A stretch of 56,987 nt of DNA. Source: an uncultured virus (IMG/VR IMGVR_UViG_3300029305_009261). Lineage: Duplodnaviria > Heunggongvirae > Uroviricota > Caudoviricetes. Numbering within the stretch: the stretch's first letter is position 1; every line of letters begins with the position of its first letter. This document shows, one piece after another, positions 160 through 21,520 of the stretch. Position numbers and translations under genes: made by a program. The notes below the pieces were generated by a model that was given only the letters and a program-made list of their open reading frames with translations, was not told the origin of the DNA and did not search any database. The stretch lies in the IMG/VR virus record IMGVR_UViG_3300029305_009261. One strand, given 5' to 3'.

Positions 160-339
160 CTACATAGATATATTGTGAACTCTAGGAAGTTCTTTGTTAT
201 TTTCTGGGTCAATTATCAGGTCCTTTTCAGAAGACCGTAAATATTCAGCCAATGTCATTTTCTTTGTATCAAAAGACATTCCTCTTCCAACAGACCCAAT
301 TACTAATATTTTTGAATAGTTTTTATTTGTTTTCTTCAT
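160..339 (-). CDS. 59-aa protein resembling a degenerate VirB4/TraE Walker-A fragment
   Basis: Hand-translated MKKTNKNYSKILVIGSVGRGMSF...LIIDPE...HNISM with GGAG RBS; below the ORF-track cutoff. Confidence 0.55.
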   Translation of the reverse strand: MKKTNKNYSKILVIGSVGRGMSFDTKKMTLAEYLRSSEKDLIIDPENNKELPRVHNISM

Positions 340-350
340 TCTTAAACTCC

Positions 351-1223
351 TTATTTCATAGTTGGTGGATTATTTTGCGCCAGTATATGGTCATGCTCTT
401 CTGCAAAAGTTTTCATTTTTTGGAACATTACTTTACTTCTAAGAAATGCTTCTAAACCAACTTCAAAACGGTTAATAAGATAAGCAATATCGTCAGCCGT
501 ATAATGAGCTTCCTCTGAAGCTTCATTTCGCATATCCGCCAATTCGTTTAGTGTATAGTTATTTACATAAAAATCTTCTAATAAAACTACAGAATTAGAG
601 TCAAGAGATAAAAGAAGTGCTTCAAAACATGTCTGGCTGAAAGCTTCTACCATAGCTTCTGTAACAGTTTCCTTTTTTTCCATAGCTTCTTTTAATTTTT
701 GTCTTAAATTTAGTTGTGGAGGAGCTATAAAAAGACCTTGAAATAATTCTGCTTTTGGGAAATCACCATAGCAAATTTTATATTGGTCACTATTTAAAAC
801 CATCTGAACGATAGGTTTTACTTGATTTTCCCAACTCAAATGACCGTTGGTACATCCGGGCATAGGAAGGTATACATTTCCGGAAATATTATTCTTTTTA
901 ATCGCTTTCTCTAATTGAAAACAACTTTGACGAATAAGATTTAAATCACTATCGTCTTTCCAATGGTGTTTTGTAGGAAAAGAAAATAAATGCACGGTTT
1001 TATTATCTATTTTTGCTTGCCCAAGATAATAAACTTGATTTCCTTTTTTAGAAACTAAAGTTCCTAAGAAAGTATCAAGACCTTCAAATTTATCTCGAAA
1101 AGTTTTTGCGATACCTGCTCCCATTACAAGAGCTCCATTTTGGCGGACCACACCATTAGTGGTGATACATAAAGCATCGCCATCTTTACAAGAGGAAAAC
1201 ATATTTTCATTTAATAATTGCAT
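351..1223 (-). CDS. Macro (ADP-ribose-binding/processing) domain protein with C-terminal extension
   Basis: ITTNG...VMGAGIAK...FPTK.HW...LPMPGCTNG.LSW motifs of phage-type macrodomains. Confidence 0.8.
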   Translation of the reverse strand: MQLLNENMFSSCKDGDALCITTNGVVRQNGALVMGAGIAKTFRDKFEGLDTFLGTLVSKKGNQVYYLGQAKIDNKTVHLFSFPTKHHWKDDSDLNLIRQSCFQLEKAIKKNNISGNVYLPMPGCTNGHLSWENQVKPIVQMVLNSDQYKICYGDFPKAELFQGLFIAPPQLNLRQKLKEAMEKKETVTEAMVEAFSQTCFEALLLSLDSNSVVLLEDFYVNNYTLNELADMRNEASEEAHYTADDIAYLINRFEVGLEAFLRSKVMFQKMKTFAEEHDHILAQNNPPTMK

Positions 1224-1297
1224 AAAAATACTCCTAAATAGTTAAAATTACATTGTTCTTGAAACATCTACTTATTATTTAATTTCTCCTGTTGAGT

Positions 1298-1558
1298 TTA
1301 CCTGTGAAAGATATTTTTATTTCTGTCTGTAGTGAAGAAATCTTCAAAATCCCACTCTTCACTATCTGGGAGCATATTTTTAATAAATTGAGTGATTTCT
1401 TCTTGTGTGTCAAAATGTTCATTGGCATATTTTACAATATTTTCAGCCGTATCAAGGAGTAACATATAGCTATAGCTATCATTATTTCTAGAATAATCTT
1501 TTTGAATATAATGAATACATTCTTCAACATCAAATGGAAAATCTCTTTTGGATAACAT
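1298..1558 (-). CDS. hypothetical protein
   Basis: ORF with GAGGA RBS in co-oriented block. Confidence 0.6.
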   Translation of the reverse strand: MLSKRDFPFDVEECIHYIQKDYSRNNDSYSYMLLLDTAENIVKYANEHFDTQEEITQFIKNMLPDSEEWDFEDFFTTDRNKNIFHR

Positions 1559-1585
1559 AATACAATCCTCTACTTTTAAAAATTC

Positions 1586-1942
1586 TTAAAACATGGTTGG
1601 AGCATTATATTGGGATTCTTTTTGTGCAGACCATTCGCAATAGGCTTCTCCATGAGAACAAAACCGTTCAATTAAACCTAGTGTAAAGGAATAAGAATAT
1701 CCAGTATGCCCACTATCTTTCATAAAATCATAAACTTGTTGGAATTTGTCTTCTGCCTCAGAAAAAAGAATTTCTTGAATTTCTAAAAGTTCTTTTATCA
1801 TTCTGGGATTTTCCAAATTCTTTGAAACAAACTCATACCAATTTGACCACTGGGATTCTGGGAAAAGCTTATAACCTTTTTCTAACCATTTTGGGATATT
1901 AAGAAGAAGGTCTTTTGAATAATTGTTTTTAAAAGTGTTCAT
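1586..1942 (-). CDS. hypothetical protein
   Basis: ORF with AAGGA RBS. Confidence 0.65.
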   Translation of the reverse strand: MNTFKNNYSKDLLLNIPKWLEKGYKLFPESQWSNWYEFVSKNLENPRMIKELLEIQEILFSEAEDKFQQVYDFMKDSGHTGYSYSFTLGLIERFCSHGEAYCEWSAQKESQYNAPTMF

Positions 1943-2108
1943 ATCTAAATTCCTTTGTTTTGAAAATACTCTTTTTATTTTTGGAAATAAAAATTTTGAT
2001 TAGGGTTACTCTATATTGTTTTTTATATTTAAGCAAATCGGAAAGCTATTTTCCTTGATTTGCCACAAAAACCATTGTATGCTATATTCATCAAATAATT
2101 TGAGGTGA

Positions 2109-2363
2109 TTGATTATGACAAATCTTGAAAGAATTAAAACGACTATATGCAATTCCATTTACTCTATGACAGAAGATAAACTATTTGAGTTTATCTCTGA
2201 ATATGAAGAGGATGAAGAGACGTATTTTCCAATTGGCACACTATTTACCTGTTCAAAATGTCATGAGTTATATGGAGATTGTGAAGCACATTATTCTGAT
2301 TCAGCTAAGTATAAAACATGTAAAAATAGATTTCATAACTATTGTAAATTGGAATGTGAATAA
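2109..2363 (+). CDS. small Cys-rich hypothetical protein (one of two plausible plus-strand genes)
   Basis: GAGGTG RBS; fills a gap between minus-strand genes; CxxC. Confidence 0.6.
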   Translation: MIMTNLERIKTTICNSIYSMTEDKLFEFISEYEEDEETYFPIGTLFTCSKCHELYGDCEAHYSDSAKYKTCKNRFHNYCKLECE

Positions 2364-2377
2364 TTTTTATATTTCCT

Positions 2378-3208
2378 TTATCGGAACATTGGCGGTGTAT
2401 ATACTTCATGTTCGTTTACGGAAGTTATGTCTATTGTTTTTGGAGGCATCTTTCCCAGAATTGGTAGACCAGATTCACATTTTGCTACAGGTTCCTGCTT
2501 AAACTGGTTTACCTTATGCATTCTGTCAATCTTTGCTTTGATTTCCATATCAGAAATTTCTCCGGTACGGATATATGGGTCTAGGTCTTTTTCATAGGAA
2601 AAACCAAAGTTATCTTCGTCACTCTTGTCAGTCAAACCATCCTTTGGGGTTTTTAAAACTAATCCCTGCGGAAGGAATGGACATGCTAAACCAATTTGTC
2701 TGACCTCAGTCACGGTATAATCCTTTAATGGAGCAAAGCTACCAAAACCATCTCCGCCATAGGTAGACCAGCCAATATAACATTCACTCAAATTACTGTT
2801 ACAGCTTGGCATTCCATTGCAGGTCTGGGCATAATAAAAAGTTTCTACCATACGAAGTCTGGCAGCTAAATTATTTTTGGCCTGTGTCGTAGGTTCAATA
2901 CCACTTTTTCTATTTTCTTCGATAATAGAATCAAACGTCGGTCCTATATTTACAATTTTGTAATCAATGCCTAAAGCCTTGACCAAGATTAAACTGCAGT
3001 CGATATCATCCTGAATGTGATTAGGCAGAAGAATTCCTTTTACTCTGTCTTTACCTAAAGCTTCAACACAAAGAGCTGCCACAATAGAGCTATCTTTCCC
3101 TCCACTAATAGCAATTACGGCATTTTTATCATTGCCATAAGTGTTAAATTTTTCTCTAATCCATTGAATAATATGAGCCTTATGTTCTCGTGCATCAAAT
3201 TCGTACAT
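2378..3208 (-). CDS. nadE: NH3-dependent NAD+ synthetase
   Basis: ISGGKDS PP-loop, NLAARLRM, SE.YIGWSTYGGD, TP.DGL..SDE motifs; start placed at the ATG after GGAGG. Confidence 0.9.
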   Translation of the reverse strand: MYEFDAREHKAHIIQWIREKFNTYGNDKNAVIAISGGKDSSIVAALCVEALGKDRVKGILLPNHIQDDIDCSLILVKALGIDYKIVNIGPTFDSIIEENRKSGIEPTTQAKNNLAARLRMVETFYYAQTCNGMPSCNSNLSECYIGWSTYGGDGFGSFAPLKDYTVTEVRQIGLACPFLPQGLVLKTPKDGLTDKSDEDNFGFSYEKDLDPYIRTGEISDMEIKAKIDRMHKVNQFKQEPVAKCESGLPILGKMPPKTIDITSVNEHEVYTPPMFR

Positions 3209-3430
3209 GATTTTAATCCTCCTTATTATCAAATGTCATTGGATTATAATTCATAATTACTACATTTGATACTGAATTTCGTGTGGCTATTTCTTGCTCA
3301 ATTTCTTTTAATTGTTCTAAGGAAGTAATCGGGTCAAGGGAGGAAATTTCTGCATTTCCATACCCCCAAATGTCTGCACTAGGAATTTGATACATAAATG
3401 ATATAAAATATTTCATATAAATTATCTCCT

Positions 3431-3688
3431 TTATCTACTAAGTGGAATATTTTCTTTTGGGTATTCTAAATCTCTAAGACATAGGTCGTTAATTGTAGCA
3501 ACAATAGATAAAAACTCTGAAATACGCAGAGTATGTAATTCTCCATCAATGGAGAGTTCTATATCGCTATATCTGAAATTTCCGTTTATCGATATAGCAA
3601 GTCCGGGTAAGGAAACAATTTCATATTCACGACCATCTATTAAATAGCCTCGCTTGCCTTTTTCGATAAATAAAGTTAAATCTTTCAT
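3431..3688 (-). CDS. hypothetical protein
   Basis: ORF with AGGAG RBS. Confidence 0.6.
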   Translation of the reverse strand: MKDLTLFIEKGKRGYLIDGREYEIVSLPGLAISINGNFRYSDIELSIDGELHTLRISEFLSIVATINDLCLRDLEYPKENIPLSR

Positions 3689-3702: not shown

Positions 3703-4155
3703 TTATCGTGAAATAAAATTGTTTTGTACTTCTTTCTGACGTTTATCTATAACTGGAATTATGTCGACACCAATGGTAAGAGCTCTACATTCTTTCGGGC
3801 CGTAATTATATTCCGTAGCTCCATCAAAAAAGAGAGATTCTTTTACACAAAATGGGTTATCATCATCATTTTCTAGGGCTATCACAAATTCCCCAGATTC
3901 AAAGAAACCATGTGTGTCATGGATAACTTTATATCGTTGTCCATAGTGAGAAGATTCATAGTTTGATTTTAATAATTCTCGTTCTTCTTTATGTTCATAC
4001 AAATAATCCAATAATTTATTTACATCAGAATCGACAAAAAAATCAAAAAGTTCGTTAATGTCTCCGTTTTCTGACTTAATAAGGTATAGCTCTTTTAAAG
4101 CTGCTTCTGCTGAAAATTCCATATAAAAATCCTTCATCTTGTAAGTACATGACAT
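3703..4155 (-). CDS. hypothetical protein
   Basis: ORF in co-oriented block. Confidence 0.6.
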   Translation of the reverse strand: MSCTYKMKDFYMEFSAEAALKELYLIKSENGDINELFDFFVDSDVNKLLDYLYEHKEERELLKSNYESSHYGQRYKVIHDTHGFFESGEFVIALENDDDNPFCVKESLFFDGATEYNYGPKECRALTIGVDIIPVIDKRQKEVQNNFISR

Positions 4156-4721
4156 GTTTCTTTAGTATTCTCTTCTTTTAGAGATTGTTGAAAAAGTTTT
4201 CTAGCTTCTTGACCCCACTGGTATTTATGAGAAATATCTTTCAATTTTTTTACAAATAACCGTCTGGATAAATCATCGCCAGTTAAGTTTTTTGTTTTTA
4301 TCCATTGATAGCGACCATTTTCTCCCCAAATCGTATGTTTCATCAATAGTTGGGCATCTTCAGCACCATCGATATCTAACTCTCTTAATTCTTTTGTTAT
4401 AGGGAAGAACGGCTCAATGTAAGACATTTCATTTATAATTTTGTTAACAAAATAAACGTCGAACCAAAAATGAACATATTCTGTCTCTACATGCAGTTCT
4501 TCGTTTTCAGCTACGACAGGCGTTTTCAATTTTGCGTATCCTGTCAAACTTCTAAAATTACCTGAGGGATTATCGTCTAAACTAGCTGCTAAAACTGTAA
4601 CCTCATCTGTAGAAAGCTCTTGTAATAAGGAAGGGGAGATTAACTTATCTGGGTAAGTTCTATTCATGATTTTAAGAAGTAGTTGCTCAGTTTGTTCTGA
4701 ATTTGTTTTATAGTATTTCAT
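4134..4721 (-). CDS. hypothetical protein, paralog family A
   Basis: Shares LST..V.V..A.L, L.GYA and L.G.DL..RLF with 4729..5331 and 15007..15606. Confidence 0.7.
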   Translation of the reverse strand: MKYYKTNSEQTEQLLLKIMNRTYPDKLISPSLLQELSTDEVTVLAASLDDNPSGNFRSLTGYAKLKTPVVAENEELHVETEYVHFWFDVYFVNKIINEMSYIEPFFPITKELRELDIDGAEDAQLLMKHTIWGENGRYQWIKTKNLTGDDLSRRLFVKKLKDISHKYQWGQEARKLFQQSLKEENTKETCHVLTR

Positions 4722-4728: not shown

Positions 4729-5331
4729 TTATCTTATTGTAATTACAGTTTGTGTTTCTTTAACGTTTTCCTTTTCCCATTGTTGAAAAAGTTTTTTCAG
4801 TTGTTGGCCCCATTGTTGCTCTCTGGAAACTTTCTGGACTTGCTGAATAAATAAGCGGCAATCCAAATCATCTCCGGACAATGTGTTTGTAGGAGTATGT
4901 ATCCAAAATCCTTTGGAGCCCCAAGGGTTTCCGTCTAATAGATGTTGAGCCTTAAACCAATTTCGATACCCTACATCCGGCACACAATCTAGAATAGGAA
5001 AAGCAGCTTCTATGGATTGCATATTATTTGTGATGCGATAGGTATCATAAGAATTGCAAATTTTATAGAAAAATTTAATATAGCTGGTTTCTGCTTGTAT
5101 CTGTTCAGACGCCGAAATAATTGGATTTGCAACTTTGGCATAACCAATTAGAGTTCCTGCAGTAGATTCGTGTTTATTTCCAAGAAAAGCACAAATAACT
5201 TTTACATTCTCTGTTGAGAGTTGGTCAGTTATTGTTTTGGGTAATAAAGTGGAATAACCTTGTAATACGGTGGGGAAAAATTTTTCCGCTTCTTTTTCAT
5301 TTATTCTATAGGTATTCATTATAAAAATCAC
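4729..5331 (-). CDS. hypothetical protein, paralog family A
   Basis: Tandem paralog of 4134..4721. Confidence 0.7.
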   Translation of the reverse strand: MIFIMNTYRINEKEAEKFFPTVLQGYSTLLPKTITDQLSTENVKVICAFLGNKHESTAGTLIGYAKVANPIISASEQIQAETSYIKFFYKICNSYDTYRITNNMQSIEAAFPILDCVPDVGYRNWFKAQHLLDGNPWGSKGFWIHTPTNTLSGDDLDCRLFIQQVQKVSREQQWGQQLKKLFQQWEKENVKETQTVITIR

Positions 5332-7091: not shown

Positions 7092-7781
7092 TTATCGAAA
7101 AGCAATTGATTCTGTTTTGGAAGATTCTAAATATGGACGAATGACTTTCGATTCTGTATAGATATCTCGGATACCAAACCCATGACCATAATCACCTAGC
7201 CAAAAAGCATTTTTTTGTTCGTTCCAAACAACTTCTGCTTCAAATCCAGTAAAAGAATCTTCTATAATATCTCCGACACAAATAGGATGACCTTCAGTGT
7301 CGACATATCCGGTAGCAGTTCCTTTTTGATAAGAGGTCGAGAATCCTTTAGAATCAGGTTGATTTATTTTCTCAATAATATAGTCCATTTTTTGACCAAG
7401 CTCACAACCAATATCATGAAGCTGTTCTATCGCAATATCTCGTTCCCATCGCACTTGGTCATAAGCTTTTCCTTTTGACAATAAAATTTCTTGTTCAGTG
7501 AAGCTATCTTTAGTAAAATTTTTAAAAGATTTTCTAAATCTACGTGCGAGTTCTAAAAACAGTTCTGTTTCGATTTCTTGTAAAGAATAAGGCTCTTCTC
7601 GTTTAGAATAACGATTTACATAATCTAACAGCATCTCAGTGCTTATATTTGTTAATTTACCAGTTTTTCTATAATCCATAAAACCATCAAACACATCAAA
7701 TAAAGTTTCTGTTCTAATGGTAGAAAAATATCTTTCAAAATTAAAAGTCATAAGTAGCTCCTTTTTAGGTAGTAAATACAT
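7092..7781 (-). CDS. hypothetical protein with YopX-like C-terminal domain
   Basis: TGYVD.EG.PICVGDII, similar to the C-terminus of the adjacent gene. Confidence 0.65.
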   Translation of the reverse strand: MYLLPKKELLMTFNFERYFSTIRTETLFDVFDGFMDYRKTGKLTNISTEMLLDYVNRYSKREEPYSLQEIETELFLELARRFRKSFKNFTKDSFTEQEILLSKGKAYDQVRWERDIAIEQLHDIGCELGQKMDYIIEKINQPDSKGFSTSYQKGTATGYVDTEGHPICVGDIIEDSFTGFEAEVVWNEQKNAFWLGDYGHGFGIRDIYTESKVIRPYLESSKTESIAFR

Positions 7782-8411: not shown

Positions 8412-9047
8412 CTACCGTTTCAGAGTTAATGAATTTGATTTTTCCAATAGATAATGATACACTGGCGGTGGGACTAATTCTTCGATTTGGTCAAAATCAT
8501 TTTGATAAAATGCTTCTCGGATATTTGTTGCAGAAATTTGTGAAAATTTGCTATCCATTTCAATTGGAGTAAAACAGTTTTGATGTTTTAAGACAAAGGA
8601 AGAAGCTTCTGCTGTTATTGTTTTTCCGTTTCGATTTACCACTAGAATTGGGGTAGTCGCCAATAAATCTTCAATATGGAACCAACGTTCCAGCTTTTTT
8701 AAATTATCTTGTCCAATACATAAAGAAACTTTGTCATATTTAAAGAAGTTTCTAATATACTCAATTGTATTATAGGTATAGCCGTCTACAGTACCATCAA
8801 CTTCAATCGAAGCTACGTAAAATTTACGGTCTGCATCAATAAGAGATAAGCTCTTTTTTAGTAATTGGCAGCGTTCTTCTCCAGTTAGAAATACAGTTCC
8901 TTTTAACTTTTTATAAGAGTATCGGTCAGTACTTGGCACATACCAAATATCTGCTTCTGGATATTTTTCATGTAATGTAAGCCCCATAGCAATATGAGCT
9001 TCTGTTACCGGGTTAAATGTTCCGGGGATAATAATTGCTGTTCTCAT
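8412..9047 (-). CDS. nadD: nicotinate/nicotinamide-nucleotide adenylyltransferase
   Basis: GTFNPVTEAH, YTYNT, IGQDN...W, ISATNIR, VPPPV motifs. Confidence 0.85.
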   Translation of the reverse strand: MRTAIIIPGTFNPVTEAHIAMGLTLHEKYPEADIWYVPSTDRYSYKKLKGTVFLTGEERCQLLKKSLSLIDADRKFYVASIEVDGTVDGYTYNTIEYIRNFFKYDKVSLCIGQDNLKKLERWFHIEDLLATTPILVVNRNGKTITAEASSFVLKHQNCFTPIEMDSKFSQISATNIREAFYQNDFDQIEELVPPPVYHYLLEKSNSLTLKR

Positions 9048-9408
9048 TAACTAACTCCTTTTCTTCGCTCAATAAAGAATAAATGTTTGATAAAGTTGTT
9101 TTATCTAGACCATGAATCTTTTTAATAAATAGTCTGATGAGATGCTTTTCTTTCTCTGAAAACGAGCTTATATCAATCAAACCCCCAGAAATTGCATCAT
9201 TAAAACATTCTTCGAATTCTTCTAAATTATCTTCAAGCTTGTAAGCTTCGATTATTTGTTGTTTCCAGTGTTTTGGTGGTTTAGAGTCTCCGTGTTCTAC
9301 TCGTGATAAAAATGCAGAAGATACATTAAGTCGTTGAGCCATATCTGAAAGCTTTTCATTTTCATCAATTCTTAATTTTCTGCAAAATTTTCCGAATTCC
9401 GTAAGCAT
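9013..9408 (-). CDS. XRE-family HTH regulator
   Basis: MLTEFGK..RKLR...DMA..L.VSSAFLS.VE.G. Confidence 0.8.
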   Translation of the reverse strand: MLTEFGKFCRKLRIDENEKLSDMAQRLNVSSAFLSRVEHGDSKPPKHWKQQIIEAYKLEDNLEEFEECFNDAISGGLIDISSFSEKEKHLIRLFIKKIHGLDKTTLSNIYSLLSEEKELVNENSNYYPRNI

Positions 9409-9423
9409 AGAACATCTCCTTTC

Positions 9424-9930
9424 TTAAAGAGTATGACTAAAGTTATCGAACATTATTTTTATCGGGTCTTTAAAGTATTGCGGTTCTGGGTATAAGGCCA
9501 TATAGATTTCGCGTTCTTTTTCAGATAAAGACCTTATAAATTTACCAAAAGCCATTCCATAGTCTTCTCCACGCCCCATTCTCCAGCCCATGGTTCCTCG
9601 TGGATATAAAGGAAATACTATCCAAGGAGGTAAAACAGCTTTTAATTCAGGGATGTTATTTTTCATTATGAAAGAACAAGTTTTTTCTGCATATTCTTCT
9701 AATACTTTTAGATATTTAGAAATTGTTTCAATAACATCTTCTGGCAAATTCCAATTTTCTTCATTTAGAGCAAATTCTGCTGGGTTTTTTAATGGAAGAT
9801 GATGTGCCCACGAGAATAAATAATCACTATGTTGTATTTTCTCATTGATACAAAATTTTTGGATATAGTCAGATTTTGCAATTAAATCTTGAATTTCAAA
9901 AGGGGTATAATAATTATGGAATAATATCAT
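9424..9930 (-). CDS. hypothetical protein with PPW..GWRMG.GE.Y domain
   Basis: Motif PPWIVFP...GWRMGRGEDY; paralog of 9960..10433. Confidence 0.65.
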   Translation of the reverse strand: MILFHNYYTPFEIQDLIAKSDYIQKFCINEKIQHSDYLFSWAHHLPLKNPAEFALNEENWNLPEDVIETISKYLKVLEEYAEKTCSFIMKNNIPELKAVLPPWIVFPLYPRGTMGWRMGRGEDYGMAFGKFIRSLSEKEREIYMALYPEPQYFKDPIKIMFDNFSHTL

Positions 9931-9959
9931 GTCAAGTGCTCCTTACCTTTCTATATAGT

Positions 9960-10433
9960 TCATTCAAAATATTCTGGGATTGGATAAAGTTTTTGATAAT
10001 TATTTAACTCTTTTTCAGAAAGGGATTTTAAAAATTTTTGATAAGCTTTAAAATAAAACTCTCCTTTACCTTGATTCCAATATATTTCGTCTTTAGGAAA
10101 TAAAGGAAATACTATCCATGGTGGCAAGACCTGCTTTAAAAGAGGAAGTTTATCATCAATAACAATATCCGATGAAATTGTTCCGGCATATTGGTCTAAT
10201 TCTCTCCAATAAAAACATATTTTTCTGCTTTCTTTTGTTGTTAAATCCCAATTGTTTGGCTCTAAAATACTTCCATTTTTATCTTTTAGCGGGAGGTGAT
10301 GACACCATTTAAATAATGTCGCCGAATAAATTTCTTTTTCATTAACACAAAAACTTTGAATATAATGGGATTTATCAACAAGGTCTTTGATATTAAAGGA
10401 ATAAGAGTCCTTTTTAAGGTTCTTTTTAAACAT
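9960..10433 (-). CDS. paralog of 9424..9930
   Basis: Shared YIQ.FC.NEK, HHLPLK, PPWIVFPL. Confidence 0.65.
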   Translation of the reverse strand: MFKKNLKKDSYSFNIKDLVDKSHYIQSFCVNEKEIYSATLFKWCHHLPLKDKNGSILEPNNWDLTTKESRKICFYWRELDQYAGTISSDIVIDDKLPLLKQVLPPWIVFPLFPKDEIYWNQGKGEFYFKAYQKFLKSLSEKELNNYQKLYPIPEYFE

Positions 10434-10451
10434 CAGAGCATCCTTTCTCTT

Positions 10452-10877
10452 TTACAATGAATTTGCCATAATAGCTCTAGCTGTATACATACAAAAATTT
10501 CCGCTAAAATATTTATTTAATACCTGCAGAAACAAATCTTCTTTTGACACCAAATAAAATAGGGTCATACAGGATTGTAGTTTTAAATTATCCGGATAGC
10601 CAAATAAATGTTCCACATCTATTATCGGAGAATCTAATACAGCTTTTGTGATTTCTCTAAGGTTTGAGCCAAGAACAGGGTCAGTCATATAGGCGAGAGC
10701 TTCTTCTTTATTATGAATGGCATAATATTGTGCAGTACCGGAGAAGCCCAGACCATACATCTGTGGAAAAATAAACCACATCCAATGACCTTTTTTCTGC
10801 CCTGCTTTTATTTCAGATAATGCAGAAATATATGTAAATTCTTGAGCAGAATGAAATTTATGTAAAAAGTCATTCAC
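10452..10877 (-). CDS. DUF1810 family protein
   Basis: HWMWFIFPQ..GLG.S, PD..KL.SCMTLF. Confidence 0.85.
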   Translation of the reverse strand: MNDFLHKFHSAQEFTYISALSEIKAGQKKGHWMWFIFPQMYGLGFSGTAQYYAIHNKEEALAYMTDPVLGSNLREITKAVLDSPIIDVEHLFGYPDNLKLQSCMTLFYLVSKEDLFLQVLNKYFSGNFCMYTARAIMANSL

Positions 10878-10881
10878 ATTA

Positions 10882-11520
10882 TCACTCTCCTTTATCTAAA
10901 AGATTTGCTTTTAAAAAAGCATTATGTGGGCAGATAGATTGACAAAGGTCACACATAGGAAGTGTTGATAAAGGTTTCTGTCCTTTTTCCACATATGTGC
11001 ATAAACACTTTAATCCATCCACTTGATACGGAGTTAAACATTGAGAAGGACAAGATTGTAAACATAGGTCACAATCACCACAAGGGTTGTAGTCAGTTAG
11101 AGGCGAATCATATTGTTCTGGGATATAATCTGTAAGAACACAGGCAAAACGTAAATAAGTCCCATAGGTAGGATTGATAATTAAAGAGTTTTTACCAAAA
11201 ACACCAATACCAGATAATACACAAGCATTTTTAATACTAATACCCACAGTTACTTTCGCTTGAAATCCTTGTTGCTTTAATTCTGCTGCCAACTCTTTTG
11301 CTTTATCTCTTGCTAGTTTATAACTAGGAAAATCATCACCAAGAATTCCTTTTTTGACAACATCCATTTCTGGAGTAACAGGAGCTCCTATAACAAAAAC
11401 AGTTCGAGCTTCTTTTAAAATAGAAGAACATTTTTTTCCGGCTTCATATTTTTTTACGGGACAGTTTATATCAATTAGGTCCAAATCTGAAGCTTTACAT
11501 GTTCTAATAATAAAATCCAT
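10882..11520 (-). CDS. epoxyqueuosine reductase (QueG)-like 4Fe-4S protein
   Basis: G.FGKN.L.INP.YG, CGDC.LC...CP, CD.CQ..CP.N. Confidence 0.7.
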   Translation of the reverse strand: MDFIIRTCKASDLDLIDINCPVKKYEAGKKCSSILKEARTVFVIGAPVTPEMDVVKKGILGDDFPSYKLARDKAKELAAELKQQGFQAKVTVGISIKNACVLSGIGVFGKNSLIINPTYGTYLRFACVLTDYIPEQYDSPLTDYNPCGDCDLCLQSCPSQCLTPYQVDGLKCLCTYVEKGQKPLSTLPMCDLCQSICPHNAFLKANLLDKGE

Positions 11521-11541
11521 TATACTCCCCCCTAAAAATGG

Positions 11542-11823
11542 TTATATGTCTTTTCGTGATTTTATATATTCGTTGAAATTCGCAAGTTTTTCTTCCGAAA
11601 GAAACATTTCTACAAGTCCACAGGTAGGGCAAACTGTAGTACTAAGGCTACATTGCCAGTCTGGTTCGTCACTTGCAGAAATGTTTAACTTTTTTCTTAG
11701 CTTAGTTTGTGCCTTGGTAACTACTAATCTTGGTCCATATGCAATACCTCCGGTAATATCGGATGTGGCGTATATTTTATCAGATTCAATCATCTGCGTA
11801 TTACAATTTCTACAAAGTCTCAT
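11542..11823 (-). CDS. zinc-ribbon protein
   Basis: CRNC...CPTCG. Confidence 0.6.
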   Translation of the reverse strand: MRLCRNCNTQMIESDKIYATSDITGGIAYGPRLVVTKAQTKLRKKLNISASDEPDWQCSLSTTVCPTCGLVEMFLSEEKLANFNEYIKSRKDI

Positions 11824-11854
11824 AAAAAACTCCTTTCTAGAATAAGAGATTGGA

Positions 11855-12316
11855 TTATTTTACAACAGAAGAAATTCCACGAATCCAAGAGGGTTCATAT
11901 TCATTCATTAACCAACCAACACCTTTACTGTGATGGTCATCAAACCAGTGCCAGATTTCCTCTCTATGAGTTCCCTTATTCCATCCTTGCCAGTCAACAT
12001 CTAAACAATCGTTCTCATCTGTAGGGACATCTTCGAGTTCTTCCCAAAGTTTTTCAATTCGAGAGTCAGAAATATCGGACTTTATCTCGATGTTTCGACG
12101 GGTAAGTTCAAGTTGATATAACTCTACACGATTTTCTGATTTTGCTTCTAAATCACGAGAATAGCTTGTACCTACTTGAAAACAATGATAAGCATCTGCT
12201 TTGAATTTTGTATAGAGGATATATAAATATGCCGTTGAAATATTCTGAACGTCAAAATCTTTCTGACTCATAGCCTTATTAAAATCTTCTATAGGGCATT
12301 CTTTATAATCTAACAT
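11855..12316 (-). CDS. phage-type hypothetical protein
   Basis: LW.EL.DVP...GT.REEIWHWFD motif. Confidence 0.6.
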   Translation of the reverse strand: MLDYKECPIEDFNKAMSQKDFDVQNISTAYLYILYTKFKADAYHCFQVGTSYSRDLEAKSENRVELYQLELTRRNIEIKSDISDSRIEKLWEELEDVPTDENDCLDVDWQGWNKGTHREEIWHWFDDHHSKGVGWLMNEYEPSWIRGISSVVK

Positions 12317-12363
12317 AAAGTTCTCTCTTTGTCGTAAATTCTTATTTTATTATATACTTTCTT

Positions 12364-13188
12364 TTATTTTAAATAGTGAGTAAAATCAACTTTTCCTAAG
12401 GTTTCGCTTAAATCTTGTTCTGGGAAAAGCTCTTCAGGAGTTCGGAGCCACTCACCAATCTGACAAAATACGTCTCCGAGAGACCCTTGAATAAATAAAT
12501 CTTCTTCGCCTAGTTTAATATCGAGTTTATCCCGATTGATTACGACAAGATGTTTCCCTTGAAAATTATTGATAAAACTGGCAGCAGGCCATACTGTAAG
12601 AGAAGTACCACCAATAATTAGCATATCGGCTTCTTCAATCGCTTGTGTAGCATTATCTACGGCTTTTTTCGGTAGCTGCTCTCCATATAAAGTGACGTCT
12701 GGTCTGATTTGACCACCACATTCACATTTGGGAATTTTCTCTTTTGTAGTAAATAAAAAGTCTGGATGATATTCCATAGTGCATTTATTACAGTAACATC
12801 TCTGTGTGGTTCCATGGATTTCATAAACATTCTTACTGCCAGCTTTTTGATGTAAACCGTCAATATTTTGAGTAACAATGGCTTTTACTTTTCCAAGGTG
12901 TTCTAATTCTGCCAAAACTTTATGAGTAATATTTGGCTCAAAATTTCTGGTGTCCATCTTTTGGCGATAAAACTCATAGAACACTTTTGGATGATAGTAT
13001 AGACAATCACGACTTAACAGATATTCTGGTTGATAACCAGAAAAATTTACATCATGTTGGTTATAAAGTCCATCTTTGCTTCGGAAATCAGGAATCCCAC
13101 TTTCTGTAGATACTCCTGCACCGCCAAAGAAAACAATATTTTTGGATTCTTTTATGTAGCCTATAAGCTTGTTAATCTTATCTTGCAT
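12364..13188 (-). CDS. cobB: Sir2/CobB-family NAD-dependent deacylase
   Basis: GGAGVSTESGIPDFR, TQNIDGLH, EIHG, Zn CxxC/CxC, GTSL.V.PA. Confidence 0.9.
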   Translation of the reverse strand: MQDKINKLIGYIKESKNIVFFGGAGVSTESGIPDFRSKDGLYNQHDVNFSGYQPEYLLSRDCLYYHPKVFYEFYRQKMDTRNFEPNITHKVLAELEHLGKVKAIVTQNIDGLHQKAGSKNVYEIHGTTQRCYCNKCTMEYHPDFLFTTKEKIPKCECGGQIRPDVTLYGEQLPKKAVDNATQAIEEADMLIIGGTSLTVWPAASFINNFQGKHLVVINRDKLDIKLGEEDLFIQGSLGDVFCQIGEWLRTPEELFPEQDLSETLGKVDFTHYLK

Positions 13189-13215: not shown

Positions 13216-13653
13216 TTATCTGGATTGAGGGGTAGTAGGTGGAAGATACTCATCCTCATGGAGAACAAAAGCTTTTTGTAATCTCTCCTCAAGTTTTAAT
13301 AAAAGCTGTTCTCTTTGTGATTTTACTTCTTCTACCCATCCATCATCGTTTTCTTTGATATACTGTAATGTTGTTATTGCTGCAGGAAGATATTCAAGAA
13401 GAGGCGTGTCAGAAAGATTTTGAAACCATTCTTCATTGTCTTCATAACAGCCTAAAATAGATTCATCAATTCCATTGATTGAGATATCTACTATTGCAAC
13501 CGCAAGTAGTTTTTCATCAATACCATTACAAGTCTCTATATTGGCGTTAAGATATTTTGTAAAAGTGTCTAACAAATTCGGACTATACATAAATTCGTCC
13601 AAAATATCTAATGCGCTGTCATTTTCTAATACTTCAAAACTCCAAGCACCCAT
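13216..13653 (-). CDS. DUF4259-like protein
   Basis: N-terminal MGAW....ENDSALD. Confidence 0.65.
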   Translation of the reverse strand: MGAWSFEVLENDSALDILDEFMYSPNLLDTFTKYLNANIETCNGIDEKLLAVAIVDISINGIDESILGCYEDNEEWFQNLSDTPLLEYLPAAITTLQYIKENDDGWVEEVKSQREQLLLKLEERLQKAFVLHEDEYLPPTTPQSR

Positions 13654-15618: not shown

Positions 15619-16098
15619 TTATCTTGATAAAGCCTGAATCGAAGAACACTCTTCTATTCGGTCTTTTCCTTTAAAAATAAGTTCATCTACTCGAATGATA
15701 TAAGCTTTTCTAGCATTTTGGTCACAATGCTCGTCAGTTTCATCAATACAATGCTGTAATGGGAAATTCACTAAGTCTTCGATAGTTTCAATGGAATCAC
15801 AATACTCTTGTATTTCTTCCTCTTGACGTTCTTCGTAAGCCTTCCAAGCTTCTTTTGGAGAAGAGTATAAATTCTGTATGTATACGTCGCCTTCAATGTA
15901 GATAAAAAAAGGAGTGACATCATCATCTTTTGAATGATAAAACATCTTTTCAACTTTAACAGAAATATCATAAATTTTTAAAATCCGAGCTTTGATAACA
16001 CAATCGGAACTATAATCATAATAATATACAAATTTTCCGACAGATAGATTGTCTTTGGTAAGTGGTTGAGTCATAAAATAAACTCCTTTTTTTTTCAT
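15619..16098 (-). CDS. hypothetical protein, paralog family B
   Basis: YC..I.T.EDL.NFPL.HCI shared with 21065..21520. Confidence 0.65.
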   Translation of the reverse strand: MKKKGVYFMTQPLTKDNLSVGKFVYYYDYSSDCVIKARILKIYDISVKVEKMFYHSKDDDVTPFFIYIEGDVYIQNLYSSPKEAWKAYEERQEEEIQEYCDSIETIEDLVNFPLQHCIDETDEHCDQNARKAYIIRVDELIFKGKDRIEECSSIQALSR

Positions 16099-16102: not shown

Positions 16103-16747
16103 TTACTTTGTCATACTTTGAGAATAAGTTTTTTCTGTATTGATATTTAGTTCCTGTAAAATTAAATCTGGAGATTTTTTATAGGAAATATGTTTCCATT
16201 CTTCTTTCGTAAGAAAAATGTTTGTATGATGCCAATCGATTAAATCTATTCCACCATATTCCTCTAAATCTCCATTTATGGTAAATCCAAAACGACATAG
16301 TACTTTTTTAGGGAAATAGCCATTAACTTCAATTGCAAGACCAATATCATCATAATCGGAATAAACCACTTCATAACTAGGTTCTGATGGCTTTGAGGAA
16401 GCTTTAGACTGTTTTGAAGAATTTTCGATTGAAATGTTCCGGTGAGCTAACTCTTTTTCAATATCGGCTTTTTCTTCATAGAGGATTGTACATTTGTGTG
16501 CAGAAATGTGCCAGTCAGACAATTCTCCTTCAATTTCTTCTAAACGACGTAACAATTTCTCTTTTGGTACTGAGTAAAGTTTGGAACTCATAACGGTAGA
16601 TGTTTTTGAGTTTTCTTTTGCTTTACTGGATATTACTTTGTTTAATGCAGAAATTGCAACACTGACTGCAGTATATTCGTTACCTACGAGAACATCCTTT
16701 GTGGATAACAGACGTTCTAATATTTGTTTAGATTCTTGCTCTGTCAT
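16103..16747 (-). CDS. hypothetical protein
   Basis: ORF with AGGAG RBS. Confidence 0.6.
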   Translation of the reverse strand: MTEQESKQILERLLSTKDVLVGNEYTAVSVAISALNKVISSKAKENSKTSTVMSSKLYSVPKEKLLRRLEEIEGELSDWHISAHKCTILYEEKADIEKELAHRNISIENSSKQSKASSKPSEPSYEVVYSDYDDIGLAIEVNGYFPKKVLCRFGFTINGDLEEYGGIDLIDWHHTNIFLTKEEWKHISYKKSPDLILQELNINTEKTYSQSMTK

Positions 16748-16759: not shown

Positions 16760-17056
16760 TTACCTAATAAGTGCATGAGTTTTGTGAGAAAAGTCTTTAT
16801 GTTCTTCTGAAGAATTCTTTTTGTTTAATGGAGAAACTTTTTTAAAAATTCGGTGCTCTTTAAAATTCTTTTGGATTTCTTCTATAGTCCACCATGCATT
16901 TTTACCAAAGTCTCTATCACATTCATTGTGAGTCATTGGGTCAATATAAGTAACACTATACTGTTCTTTTTGTGTGGTACTAATATCAACGATAACTGCC
17001 AATGCTGGCTTTCCTTTCACTTTAAATATATCTCCAATATGATATAAGGTATTCAT
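16760..17056 (-). CDS. hypothetical protein
   Basis: ORF with AGGAG RBS. Confidence 0.6.
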   Translation of the reverse strand: MNTLYHIGDIFKVKGKPALAVIVDISTTQKEQYSVTYIDPMTHNECDRDFGKNAWWTIEEIQKNFKEHRIFKKVSPLNKKNSSEEHKDFSHKTHALIR

Positions 17057-17474: not shown

Positions 17475-17480
17475 AAGTTT

Positions 17481-18011
17481 TTACCTTCCTAATGTAGGAC
17501 TTGTGCAGTATTTTTGGTAATATTCATAAGCCTCTTCTTCCGGCATCTGAGCTAAAACATCATCTAAAGCGCTCTTCATTTCTTCGTCTGTGGCAAAATC
17601 TAAATCATGGTCCAGAATATCCACCATGGCATCTGCACCTGCAAAGAAAACATTTTTCTTTAGTTCTTCATACATTTCTTCTGTCATAAGAGGTTCTGTT
17701 TTCGAAGAAAAAGATAACCTTGCTAATACTTGACAGTCTTTTTCTAATTCAAGGACAGATTTCCGTCTTGCATCGAGTTTCTTTTTAAGAGCTTCTAATA
17801 TAATCTCTTTTGCTTTTTCATAATTAGGTTCCAATAAAAATACGGTGGTACCATAATCAGAGAAGATTTTATTAACAGAGTCTTTTGCTATGCGTCGTTT
17901 GCCAAAAGCACCTTCGAATTCATAGATTTTTGGCTTTTCAACAGCATCACGTTCTGTCATAGTAATTGGGTTTTTATCACCCTTGAAATAGTCAAATTGA
18001 TATAATTTCAT
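17481..18011 (-). CDS. hypothetical protein
   Basis: Start moved to the ATG after AAGGA. Confidence 0.6.
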   Translation of the reverse strand: MKLYQFDYFKGDKNPITMTERDAVEKPKIYEFEGAFGKRRIAKDSVNKIFSDYGTTVFLLEPNYEKAKEIILEALKKKLDARRKSVLELEKDCQVLARLSFSSKTEPLMTEEMYEELKKNVFFAGADAMVDILDHDLDFATDEEMKSALDDVLAQMPEEEAYEYYQKYCTSPTLGR

Positions 18012-18043
18012 AGATAACATCCTTTTATTGAAAACACTTATAT

Positions 18044-18475
18044 TTATCGTGATATGTTTTGTGGAGCCGGATGAATTTCTGGAGATTCTTCTTCCCAAAA
18101 TCTCATATCCGGTTGAATTTCACCAGAAGAAATCATTTCAAATAGTTGAGTATAGTTTTTCCTAACTTCATCAATTTGCTTCATCATATTTTCCATATAA
18201 TTAGAAAAAGCAACCTTTGCCCCACTATATAACACTTGTCTTGCTATTGTATCATTTCTCTCAAAAGAATAATAAGTTCTTTGATTTGAAACTGCCGGAT
18301 TATCAATAAGCGATGTTTCTACTTTAAGATGCGTATCTATTTCAGCAAATGTTTTTCCGTCTTGTTTTACAACATTGGTAATTCTTTTTTTTCTAATATG
18401 GAATTCATTTGGATAAGCAGAATATTCATATACTGTTTTTCCAATAAGGGGATGATTATCAAGGTTAAAAACCAT
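18044..18475 (-). CDS. hypothetical protein
   Basis: ORF in co-oriented block. Confidence 0.6.
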   Translation of the reverse strand: MVFNLDNHPLIGKTVYEYSAYPNEFHIRKKRITNVVKQDGKTFAEIDTHLKVETSLIDNPAVSNQRTYYSFERNDTIARQVLYSGAKVAFSNYMENMMKQIDEVRKNYTQLFEMISSGEIQPDMRFWEEESPEIHPAPQNISR

Positions 18476-18501: not shown

Positions 18502-18969
18502 TTACCTTTTATATAATTGATATTTTTTGCTAATTTGATGAGCAATTTCATCCGGCAATGGCTTAAACCAAATGCCAACAGTTGTGGTCCCATCTTCATT
18601 TTCTGGAATAAGCTCTGTTAAACAGTTGTCATTGATGATTCCAAAGTCAATATTTTCAGTCAGTCCCAATGATTCTGCAATAGTTTTTGCTTTTAAAAGA
18701 TGAGTCTTATTTTTAGCCTCACAGATTGTTTTAACAAAAGAACCCTGTAAATACTGTTCAAATTCTTCTTTATCAAGTTTTAAGAATGCTTTGTAATAAT
18801 TTGCATCTACCGGAAGCATTGCAGTTGTAAAGTCATTGACAAAACCTATAGCTGTTCTTTGAATCATTCTGGTCCAATATCCTTCTGCACAATGAGCCAC
18901 CATAGCTGCGAGCTTTCCTGCGGATAAATTAAGGTCTTTACGAATTATAAAAACACGACGAAAACTCAT
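18502..18969 (-). CDS. peptidyl-tRNA hydrolase type 2 (Pth2)
   Basis: IRKDL.LS.GKLAA..AH, K.I, I.D...TE, T.VG..P, L.LY. Confidence 0.8.
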   Translation of the reverse strand: MSFRRVFIIRKDLNLSAGKLAAMVAHCAEGYWTRMIQRTAIGFVNDFTTAMLPVDANYYKAFLKLDKEEFEQYLQGSFVKTICEAKNKTHLLKAKTIAESLGLTENIDFGIINDNCLTELIPENEDGTTTVGIWFKPLPDEIAHQISKKYQLYKR

Positions 18970-18985
18970 TTACTCTTACCTCTGT

Positions 18986-19495: not shown

Positions 19496-19505
19496 AAGAA
19501 TCTCC

Positions 19506-19982
19506 TTATCTGTAAAGAGTATAGTTTTCTACTTGTGCTTTTTGTGGAGTTCCGTCTTTGATAATTTTGATTGCTTTACTTTTCCAAATCATGGGTTCTT
19601 TTCCATCTCGGACAAGTAAGCCATCTTCATCTGTTGCAGATTGATTTATTTCCTCTATAACTTTATCAACGTCATAAGCAATTGGCATTTCAACAATTTC
19701 TTGTCTTATTTTATCGACTCTGCAGTTGTATTGATAATCTTGAGAATTCATACAGTTAATATATCCTAATTCATCCAGAAGTTTTAATACATCTGCTTTG
19801 CTTATCAGGTCTGTAGGCATAAGATTAATGTTCTCCTCTTCTAAAAGTTCTTTACGATATTCTTCTTCACAATATTTTGCATATTCTTCTTCATAAGCTA
19901 GTTGTTGCCGATATTCTTCTAGTTCCATTTGAACAGCAAATTCATATTCTTCATCTGAATAGAAATCACATCTACTTACCAT
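19506..19982 (-). CDS. phage-type hypothetical protein
   Basis: DLISK...P.AYDVDKV motif common in Clostridia phage small genes. Confidence 0.6.
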   Translation of the reverse strand: MVSRCDFYSDEEYEFAVQMELEEYRQQLAYEEEYAKYCEEEYRKELLEEENINLMPTDLISKADVLKLLDELGYINCMNSQDYQYNCRVDKIRQEIVEMPIAYDVDKVIEEINQSATDEDGLLVRDGKEPMIWKSKAIKIIKDGTPQKAQVENYTLYR

Positions 19983-20009
19983 AATAAAACATCCTTATTT
20001 CGAAAATAC

Positions 20010-20684
20010 TTATTTTTGTAAAGGAATATTTGCATATTTAGAATGCTGTAACGCTTCTTCTTCATCAAAAAACAAATCTATTCCAAGGCGAGACGCGAGA
20101 TAGTCTCCGCCACGAAATTCTTTGTCTCCGTCGATTTCAATGACTACTTGTGGAGTTCCCTTATAAATTTTATCGTCTGAATCAAAAAAATCACTCCAAT
20201 AAGCCCCTTCAAACCGCACTCCGGTAATGGTATGAGTTTCCATCTTCCAACTTGGATTAGCCCAATAAATAGGACGGCCAATCATTGCCTTTAATAAAGG
20301 TATTTGTACCCGGATTGCATTAACCTTCTCTTCTTCTAATTTTTCATTTGCTTTTTCTAAAACTACAATTCGATTTGCAGCTCCGGAAATAAGACTTTTT
20401 GTATTATTATTTAAAATTGATAAAGAAGAGAGGTCCTTTAATTTTTCTACCAATCCTTTTGGTCTTAAGGATTCTGCTTCTGCAGATTCGTATTTTTCTA
20501 ATTTTTTAAGCCAATTAACTAGCTGAGAAAATTCATCAGCCATTTTTTGAGCATCTTCTGCACCACTTGTAATCGTTGATTTTGGGTCTCCATAGTCTTT
20601 AAAACCACGGAAAGCTTTTGCCAGATTATCTTTTTCACTAGATAATTGTTCATATTTTTGAATTGCTTCAGTCAAAGAATACAT
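20010..20684 (-). CDS. hypothetical protein
   Basis: ORF with AAGGA RBS. Confidence 0.6.
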   Translation of the reverse strand: MYSLTEAIQKYEQLSSEKDNLAKAFRGFKDYGDPKSTITSGAEDAQKMADEFSQLVNWLKKLEKYESAEAESLRPKGLVEKLKDLSSLSILNNNTKSLISGAANRIVVLEKANEKLEEEKVNAIRVQIPLLKAMIGRPIYWANPSWKMETHTITGVRFEGAYWSDFFDSDDKIYKGTPQVVIEIDGDKEFRGGDYLASRLGIDLFFDEEEALQHSKYANIPLQK

Positions 20685-20702
20685 AAGATAATTCCTTTCT
20701 TT

Positions 20703-21038
20703 TTAATAAAATTTAGGGCTTTCCCAAGGTCGAACTCTTTTCGTACCTTTGGAGGTTTTTATATATTTTGTGGTTGGTTCTAATTCTTCTTTAAAGAAAT
20801 TATGAAATACGTCTTTTTTTTCTATATCAGAGAACATAAGTTTTAATTCTTCTGCTCTTTCAGCCATTTGTTCATCAAAAGTTTTGATATTAAAAATAGC
20901 AGAATCATAAACTTCATAGAGATTTTCTCCAATTTTTTTACAATAGATTTCATTCCAAAGAACTACCCAAGTCCCAATAGAGATTTCTTCATCTGGGATG
21001 GAAGGAAAGTTTAATTCCATAACACAAGTCGGATTCAT
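20703..21038 (-). CDS. hypothetical protein
   Basis: ORF with AGGAG RBS. Confidence 0.6.
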   Translation of the reverse strand: MNPTCVMELNFPSIPDEEISIGTWVVLWNEIYCKKIGENLYEVYDSAIFNIKTFDEQMAERAEELKLMFSDIEKKDVFHNFFKEELEPTTKYIKTSKGTKRVRPWESPKFY

Positions 21039-21064
21039 TCTAGGGCTCCTTATAATAAAAGTAT

Positions 21065-21520
21065 TTATCTAGTCATCATAGTAGGGATACTTGATGTATT
21101 TTTGGTATCATAAAAATTACAATCAAAATATAATTCTTTTGCCCTTAATTCATATGCCTTTCTAGCTTCCCAATTTGTATATTCTTCACCGCTAATGCAG
21201 TGAGATAACGGGAAGTTAATTAAATCTTCTAATGTCTTTATTTCTTCACAATATTTCTGGATGAGTTCATTTTCTTTTTTCTCTACAATTTCGTAAGCAA
21301 GTTTTGCAGTAGAGAACATGTCTTTAAATCTTGCTCCACCTTCTCCATAACTTTTAGCAATTTGCTTTCCATCTCTATCTACATGAGAGATACAATTTAT
21401 TCTACATCCATCTTCACATATTTGTGAAATAGTTCCTTTTATAATGTTTCCACTCCATGTCTCTTGGAAGTAGACAATTTCTCCTATGTTTACATTTGCA
21501 ATTGTGTATTGTTTACTCAT
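21065..21520 (-). CDS. hypothetical protein, paralog family B
   Basis: Paralog of 15619..16098; start at the ATG after AGGAG. Confidence 0.65.
   Translation of the reverse strand: MSKQYTIANVNIGEIVYFQETWSGNIIKGTISQICEDGCRINCISHVDRDGKQIAKSYGEGGARFKDMFSTAKLAYEIVEKKENELIQKYCEEIKTLEDLINFPLSHCISGEEYTNWEARKAYELRAKELYFDCNFYDTKNTSSIPTMMTR

Follow-up and report, generated by a model that had tools for sequence, protein, structure and literature searches.

A C-terminal hydrophobic-x-Arg tail shared by unrelated proteins of an uncultured gut virus: a candidate docking tag

Results

Tail-bearing proteins of the window

The DNA analysed here (the window) is a stretch of 56,987 bases from an uncultured virus (IMG/VR record IMGVR_UViG_3300029305_009261), with about 32% G+C and with coding almost entirely on the minus strand. 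Between positions 160 and 21559 (the span), many of the encoded proteins end in a common short tail consisting of a hydrophobic residue, a variable residue and a C-terminal Arg. Open reading frames (ORFs) of at least 50 amino acids (aa) were collected, the longest being kept first and any ORF overlapping a kept one by more than 60 nt being discarded. The span then contained 40 minus-strand ORFs, 17 of which end in Arg and 5 in Lys; these counts, given in an earlier note made from the letters of this DNA, were reproduced exactly, and every tail listed there was found as written.

All features in this and the following two paragraphs are encoded on the minus strand. The Arg-ended proteins of the first half of the span comprise an acidic 86-aa protein of no family (1298..1558, ending ...NKNIFHR), the NH3-dependent NAD+ synthetase NadE (2378..3232, ...YTPPMFR; Pfam PF02540, E = 7e-39), an 85-aa protein of no family (3431..3688, ...ENIPLSR), an acidic 150-aa protein of no family (3703..4155, ...QNNFISR), two members of a three-copy paralogue family (195 aa, 4134..4721, ...TCHVLTR; and 200 aa, P0192, 4729..5331, ...QTVITIR), a 229-aa protein with a YopX-like C-terminal region (7092..7781, ...ESIAFR) and a NadD-type nicotinate/nicotinamide nucleotide adenylyltransferase (8412..9047, ...NSLTLKR). 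Further along lie a DUF4259 protein (13216..13653; domain at residues 2-108 of 145), the C-terminal extension of which ends in ...PPTTPQSR, the third member of the paralogue family (199 aa, P0193, 15007..15606, ...RIQNLSR), which has a shorter linker, and the two members of a paralogue pair (159 aa, 15619..16098, ...SSIQALSR; and 164 aa, 21065..21559, ...SSIPTMMTR). Three proteins of no family (98 aa, 16760..17056, ...KTHALIR; 205 aa, 17481..18098, ...TSPTLGR; 143 aa, 18044..18475, ...APQNISR), a PTH2-type peptidyl-tRNA hydrolase (18502..18969, ...YQLYKR) and an acidic 158-aa protein (phrog_20593; 19506..19982, ...ENYTLYR) complete the set.

Lys takes the place of Arg in a protein that joins a DarG-like Macro domain (residues 1-154) to a 135-aa C-terminal half (351..1223, ...NNPPTMK), in a 214-aa protein (16103..16747, ...YSQSMTK), in a 224-aa protein (20010..20684, ...ANIPLQK) and in a CobB/Sir2 deacylase (12364..13188, ...FTHYLK), which is a doubtful member. 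Two further variants are the Met-ended ...VHNISM of a 59-aa P-loop-like fragment (160..339) and the ...NAPTMF of a 118-aa protein (1586..1942). Possible members outside the span are a very acidic 506-aa protein (24521..26041, ...QEIVSR), a 352-aa protein (29007..30065, ...GAIPYLR) and a 182-aa protein (32286..32834, ...LKMNSR).

Not every gene in the span encodes the tail, since a sub-block at 9013..12316, which encodes a helix-turn-helix regulator, two paralogues, a DUF1810 protein, a QueG-like Fe-S protein, a Zn-ribbon protein and a 153-aa protein, is tail-less. Together with the CobB/Sir2 gene this sub-block forms a stretch without Arg tails (9013-13188), which may be a separately acquired module; its two paralogues are 48% identical, and its QueG-like protein is of the 4Fe-4S type. 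Tails are also lacking in the GT2, PAP2, CheY and CheX proteins, as the earlier note had stated.

The bearers are diverse. NadE, NadD, PTH2 and the DUF4259 protein clearly differ in fold, and BLASTP among the Arg-ended proteins gave only three paralogue links, all within the groups starting at 4134, 4729 and 15007 and at 15619 and 21065; with so few links, about 14 independent families are represented. BLASTP additionally tied the protein at 7092 to the tail-less product of 6180-7061, which ends in YFSN, through a C-terminal region common to both. A transmembrane segment was predicted in none of the 22 Arg- or Lys-ended proteins, and 19 of these are net acidic. The three-copy family belongs to no Pfam or PHROG family. 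The confident model of its member at 4729..5331 (predicted local distance difference test, pLDDT, 91) consists of a helix-flanked beta-sheet and a long C-terminal helix, the last 5 residues being coil, and no convincing fold match to it was found (best Foldseek E 0.06; best VIA Z 5.0, PDB; Atlas scores at most 0.84). About 28 metagenome relatives of this family share a conserved LSGDDLxCRLFI block.

Enrichment and controls

Arg accounts for 3.5% of the residues in the proteins of the span, from which a binomial p of 8.1e-15 was obtained for 17 Arg ends among 40. The terminal pattern hydrophobic-x-R was present in 15/40 ORFs versus 1.27% per internal position, and position -3 was hydrophobic in 18/22 Arg- or Lys-ended proteins versus a background of 35%. 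In residues -12 to -4, Pro, Gln and Thr were enriched about 2.2-fold, and Gly, Asp, Phe and Met were depleted. Arg ends were counted in four control sets, namely the rest of the window (4/67 ORFs; Fisher p = 7e-6), the antisense ORFs of the span (2/38), out-of-frame ORFs on the same strand (2/32) and six other phage-like loci (10/172 ORFs), and occurred at 5-6% in all of them. The rest-of-window set includes some probably spurious ORFs among the tRNA genes, and the PAP2 ORF (22752-23303) was discarded from it by the overlap rule. Few tails were found in the adjoining membrane/envelope gene block. The shared tail is real and statistically secure.

Codon usage at the tail

The terminal Arg residues are encoded from two codon boxes (AGA 7, CGA 5, AGG 4, CGG 1), Ser at position -2 by AGT, TCA, TCT or TCC, and the residue at -3 by six codons (CTT, TTA, CTG, ATT, ATA and ATG). 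A repeat search over positions 1-22000 returned only weak families of two to three copies, none of them at stop junctions save for similarity of the ribosome-binding-site type. A nucleotide motif at the junction of stop codon and ribosome-binding site, named in the earlier note as a competing cause, does not explain the Arg ends, because GGAG lies 0-3 nt past the stop codon in only 5 of the 17 Arg-ended ORFs and because four ORFs elsewhere in the window with GGAG at the stop end in E, N, W and S. The evidence favours a protein-level signal with a small nucleotide component. Rare Arg codons before stop codons can trigger SsrA tagging; this candidate was set aside. AGA is the commonest terminal codon and also the commonest Arg codon here.

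Relation of the tail to the protein fold

In an alignment of NadE with its relatives, the window protein runs 23 residues past the last helix of the fold, where relatives of 80%, 62% and lower identity end. In the model built on that alignment, residues 255-284 have pLDDT < 50 and no secondary structure. Two more distant NadE relatives (P0043 and P0046) carry a different extension, which ends in DDLQK. The helical C-terminal half of the Macro protein (135 aa) is absent from all 70 database relatives, which are single-domain proteins of 159-250 aa, and the Sir2 protein continues for about 30 residues past the CobB model and ends in Lys. The statement that the tails of NadE, NadD and Sir2 extend past the conserved fold is thereby borne out for NadE and plausible for Sir2; for NadD the excess is only a few residues, and for PTH2 such a statement would not hold.

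Maintenance in paralogues and recurrence in homologues

The three-copy family (4134, 4729 and 15007) retains the hydrophobic-x-R end in 3/3 members at 32-34% identity, one copy being short of about 13 linker residues. The pair at 15619 and 21065 (36% identity) differs by an 8-residue indel in the linker and ends in ALSR and MMTR, respectively. A profile of the three-copy family was run against 1.84 billion representatives and retrieved 30 proteins, 29 of which were examined (a 48-aa fragment was omitted); 2 of them are the window's own and 27 are foreign. Two foreign homologues end in S-R (P0194, ...TAPVFSR; P0206, ...QAQVFSR) and four in T-M (P0202, ...APPITM; P0205, ...IPPMTM; P0209 and P0212, both ...ERPLTM). 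P0195, the closest relative of the protein at 4134 (about 50% identity), stops short of the linker and tail. With the motif in 6 of 27 foreign proteins and lacking in P0195, the tail therefore comes and goes within one family. The foreign Met-ended form echoes the window's own ...HNISM, ...PPTMK and ...APTMF, and the motif is best written hydrophobic-[S/T/x]-[R>K,M]-COOH, with the extension to Met being tentative. The foreign tailed homologues sit on contigs of 966-3015 bp and, owing to this length, come without genome context.

Further collections were searched. The viral contig collection contained nothing related to NadE, to an exact 40-mer of the window, to P0194 or to P0202; two loci found there with a degenerate pattern of the family motif were rejected as chance matches, judged by composition and ORF endings only. 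The metagenome scan gave 3 loci with distant Macro relatives only (45%, 45% and 40% identity), and no tail enrichment was seen in L005 and L007. None of 12 loci from a pattern scan of genome contigs encodes a family member (tblastn). Neither window positions 1-21600 nor the 200-aa family protein nor the 158-aa protein had a match in the phage collection, where the tRNA region matched single tRNAs only. Four uncultured "Bacteriophage sp." contigs with NadE proteins of 40-51% identity showed no tail enrichment, and a profile of the 15619/21065 pair retrieved the window's own two proteins only. On one uncultured "Bacteriophage sp." contig (MT835544.1, L001; 7903-13318), a tandem series of eight paralogous ORFs, each of about 67-101 aa, shares the ending C-x-C-x-S-L-L (...NECFCSSLL and ...KECFCESLL among them), and a ninth (590-835) ends in ICKSLL; this array looks like a CaaX-like Cys-rich C-terminus on a set of small proteins.

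Taken together, these results show that the motif exists and is under selection at the level of the protein, that it has been appended to folds already complete without it, and that it is retained by paralogues and recurs on homologues from other elements.

Nature of the element

Family scans were performed with Pfam and PHROGs on 87 window proteins and with NCBIfam on 30. The families matched were a DarG-like Macro domain, NadE, the NadD-type adenylyltransferase, a SpoT-like HD hydrolase fused to a YopX-like region, a HAD "Swiss Army Knife" RNA-repair domain, the CobB/Sir2 deacylase, DUF1810, the QueG-like Fe-S protein, PTH2, an R2K.2 ATP-grasp, a TnpB-like protein, CheY, CheX, GT2/GtrA, PAP2, NAGPA and an M15 peptidase. 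Capsid, terminase and encapsulin families were matched by none of the 87 proteins (Pfam and PHROGs, 57 kb covered). Positions 45342-55940 hold 35 tRNA genes, mixed with small ORFs and a NUMOD4/HNH endonuclease. Passages of a comparative review (PMC7824862) count tRNAs, NAD+ synthesis, Macro, SIR2 and RNA-repair genes among the counter-defence equipment of jumbo phages. The window DNA was present in 7 sequencing runs, all of them feces metagenomes, with no RNA sequencing run listed, and proteins identical to those of the window were found on contigs of up to 130,796 bp. The window is very probably an accessory region of a large or huge, tRNA-rich, uncultured phage from the animal gut, and its strong GGAG ribosome-binding sites suggest a Firmicute host.

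The tRNA array covers most amino acids and includes an odd tRNA-Tyr call with anticodon ATA (46052-46134) and a tRNA-Ile with anticodon TAT. Its two Arg tRNAs (TCT and ACG) read AGA and CGA, which are the commonest terminal Arg codons. The R2K.2 ATP-grasp (40243-41013), the HAD RNA-repair protein (7862-8401) and PTH2 (18502-18969) occur with this array in one phage, and the three look like a kit for the repair or modification of the translation apparatus. A very basic 437-aa protein (38271-39584, net +28) with a weak OrfB_IS605/TnpB match may be a TnpB-like nuclease inside the phage.

Discussion

The tail as a probable docking tag

A short exposed peptide that stands on a flexible linker and is common to many unrelated soluble proteins bears the signature of a docking motif, and on this ground the tail is probably a docking (address) tag for a single reader encoded outside the window. 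The 21-kb block encodes soluble, mostly acidic proteins, many of them with counter-defence or metabolic roles (the DarG-like Macro protein, NadE, NadD, the SpoT-like HD relative and PTH2), and about half of its proteins bear a lineage-specific C-terminal short linear motif. This motif is built from a flexible linker rich in Pro, Gln, Thr and Asn, followed by a hydrophobic residue (position -3), by a residue that is small or variable and most often Ser or Thr (position -2), and by a long-chained last residue, Arg or less often Lys or Met, which bears the free carboxylate. The last three residues may plug into a pocket of the common reader, which would give the unrelated proteins one destination or fate. 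The earlier note had offered a shared degron or packaging tag as its second choice. The evidence points in that direction, and the part of the proposal that stands is a protein-level tag common to unrelated proteins.

By analogy, the tail would work like several known address peptides, in each of which one terminal peptide brings many cargoes to one reader, and it is a member of none of them. The peroxisomal targeting signal type 1 (PTS1), [SAC][KRH][LM]-COOH, is eukaryotic and peroxisomal. It resembles the tail in being a tripeptide of small, basic and hydrophobic residues at the extreme C-terminus, set on a flexible end of unrelated soluble enzymes and bound by one receptor, whereas in the tail the residue classes stand in the reverse order; the PTS1 pattern was matched by 0/40 ORFs, and the analogy is one of logic only. 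The ClpX-binding (XB) tail of SspB and the ClpX degrons share with the tail the arrangement of a domain, a long flexible linker and a hydrophobic/basic peptide that needs a free end; they differ from it in sequence, in that the tail has many unrelated bearers instead of one adaptor, and in that no unfoldase was found in the window. The capsid targeting sequence (CTS) of phage T4 is N-terminal and is removed by the prohead protease, whereas the tail is C-terminal, lies directly before the stop codon and has another sequence. The likeness lies in the internal proteins and Alt of T4, a diverse and fast-changing counter-defence set in which, as passages of PMC3012670 describe, a short peptide alone is common to the members and gives them one destination. 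Encapsulins of Family 1 load cargo into an HK97-fold shell by short C-terminal peptides behind flexible linkers, and passages of PMC8346489 describe these peptides as having a hydrophobic core and a basic residue and as being carried by unrelated enzymes. Here, too, the peptide follows a flexible linker, with NadE disordered at 255-284 and the linker 2.2-fold enriched in Pro, Gln and Thr. Against the encapsulin consensus SDGSLGIGSLKRS, as given in a passage of the same source (PMC8346489), GSL occurs in 0/22 tails (last 15 residues) and the order of residue types differs, and no gene for an HK97-fold shell was matched in the window. The signals of type IV secretion systems (T4SSs; the Arg-rich signals of VirB/D4 and those of Dot/Icm) are likewise C-terminal, unstructured and carried by unrelated proteins, but the tail region is not net basic, no T4SS was found in the window and the element is phage-like.

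A number of observations weigh against a docking tag, or against parts of the picture drawn above. The analysis identified no reader and gave no hint of one in the window. A purine is the third base of each of the 17 terminal Arg codons, with CGT and CGC at zero versus 56 of 219 (26%) at internal positions (chance about 0.006), so that some preference of nucleotides or termination context must lie atop the protein signal. The ending is not an appended tail in every case: the models of NadD reach residue 202-205 or so of 211, leaving only a few residues past the fold, and the fold of PTH2 aligns to within about 2-6 residues of its end, which places the ending at the border of the fold; in both proteins the ending can be no more than a slight modification of the terminus that the fold naturally has. 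The motif is missing from 21/27 foreign homologues of the three-copy family, the ends of which are rich in Lys and Glu or of other kinds, only about two lineages account for the Met-ended forms, and searches of the viral, metagenome and genome collections recovered no relative together with its genome context. The window contains no phage structural gene, for which reason both its identity as a phage and the loading of tailed proteins into virions are proposed at the level of inference. Known phage capsid-targeting sequences are N-terminal and cleaved off. Finally, enzymes such as NadE and NadD seem to be needed in bulk, a point against the delivery of a few packaged copies.

Alternative explanations

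The probability that the tail is a product of chance, gene-calling error or a DNA-level artefact (repeat, ribosome-binding-site overlap or composition) is negligible: the mild bias towards purine-ending codons is in its favour, but the enrichment has p = 8e-15, antisense and out-of-frame ORFs give only 2/38 and 2/32, no repeat lies at the gene junctions, and the stop positions are independent of the choice of start codon. A tail that is selected without any binding partner, because it tunes translation termination or caps the C-terminus with a stabilising charge in one highly expressed operon, is improbable. Basic last residues favour termination, and polar or charged ends stabilise proteins; these effects would agree with the purine-ended terminal codons (17/17), which are followed by TAA in 14/17. 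Such effects would leave unexplained the hydrophobic residue at -3 (18/22), the Pro/Gln/Thr-rich linker and the appended extensions of 23-30 residues. Ends of this kind are also few (4/67) in the gene array at 21.6-44 kb, which is packed just as tightly, and Met-ended variants exist in the homologues. A somewhat better case can be made, although we still regard it as unlikely, for a tether to an AAA+ unfoldase or protease (host ClpX or ClpC, or a phage-encoded one), with the tail acting as a degron that shortens the life of its bearers or in the manner of an SspB XB adaptor. The architecture is that of SspB, in which a flexible linker joins a folded domain to a short C-terminal peptide containing hydrophobic residues and ending in a basic one, and in the NadE model the tail is an exposed, disordered stretch. 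On the other hand, no AAA+ or protease gene was found in the window (Pfam and PHROGs scans), the motif is unlike any ClpX, ClpA or Lon signal that we can name, and there is no evident reason for a phage to destroy its own NAD+ synthesis enzymes.

The earlier note had read the tails as T4SS translocation signals on the cargo of a conjugative element, a reading that the results leave very improbable. Signals of the VirB/D4 type have net positive, multi-Arg C-terminal stretches of 20-30 residues; the last 20 residues of the Arg- and Lys-ended proteins carry on average +2.9/-3.0 charges and 0-2 Arg per tail, and only 1/22 reaches a net charge of at least +3, so that the tail region is not net basic. 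It is true that known T4SS signals lie in unstructured C-termini, where a hydrophobic residue may stand close to the end (a passage of PMC4431377, citing work on RalF), and that the 59-aa ORF at 160-339 weakly matches VirB4-type models in its P-loop (E = 1e-3 to 1e-4), but at 18-20 bits this AAA_10/VirB4 match stays below the cut-offs of the models, which are 27.5 and 590 bits. The ORF, which contains a P-loop-like GSVGRGMS segment, is far too short for a VirB4/AAA_10 ATPase and was probably the source of the T4SS idea. The search for a T4SS and a relaxase that the note had recommended found no T4SS, coupling protein or relaxase in the 57-kb window, either in the Pfam and PHROGs scans of 87 proteins or in the NCBIfam scan of 30. 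The 35 tRNAs, the homing endonuclease and the phage-family matches make the content phage-like, and the 200-aa protein of the largest tailed family had no match in 72,556 plasmids. It is just as improbable that a protein-modifying ligase acts on the exposed alpha-carboxylate, in the manner of tubulin tyrosine ligase or RimK. A candidate enzyme would be the R2K clade family 2 ATP-grasp encoded in the window (40243-41013; PF18299, E = 5e-13), and R2K.2 enzymes are predicted, in a passage of PMC4431377, to be peptide ligases that target proteins of elusive identity. Against this idea, the gene lies 19 kb from the tailed block, the C-terminal ligases that are known modify acidic tails, and nothing links gene and tail. 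A complex prediction for this ATP-grasp with the 85-aa tailed protein, ATP and Mg, run without controls, gave no answer (score 0.00). Mimicry of the FtsZ C-terminal peptide (D-I-P-x-F-L-R), which the tail resembles, was set aside, as were sliding-clamp binding, product-like docking to a prohead protease, and phosphorylation or ADP-ribosylation of the terminal Arg.

Possible fate of the tagged proteins

If the tail is a docking tag, the fate that we favour, tentatively and by analogy with the T4 CTS and the encapsulin peptides, is packaging into the virion, by which counter-defence enzymes might be carried ready-made into the next cell together with the DNA. The bearers are for the most part counter-defence enzymes, to which such an arrival would be of advantage; according to the abstract of PMC7411985, the head of a giant phage holds more than 40 MDa of ejection proteins. 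Rather more doubtful is the wider proposal that, throughout a clade of large gut phages, a hydrophobic-[S/T]-[R/K/M]-COOH address on a flexible linker loads at least 20 unrelated counter-defence enzymes into the particle, so that they would reach the cell with the DNA ahead of phage gene expression. Such an address would be the counterpart of PTS1 in viruses of prokaryotes, or a T4 CTS moved to the C-terminus. With the same reserve, the roles of these enzymes could be the removal of ADP-ribose, the resynthesis of NAD+ and the hydrolysis of alarmones and peptidyl-tRNA. Word searches of open-access papers and preprints returned no description of a hydrophobic-x-Arg C-terminal tag in phages.

Conclusions

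Should the tail be an address label, it would single out a set of phage proteins, mostly of unassigned function, as sharing one destination or fate, and the peptide with its free carboxylate would be a handle with which to fish out the machine that reads it. The three residues would, if this is true, constitute a transplantable tag that directs soluble proteins of any kind to a location set by the phage and that could be as useful in engineering as the T4 CTS and the encapsulin peptides already are.

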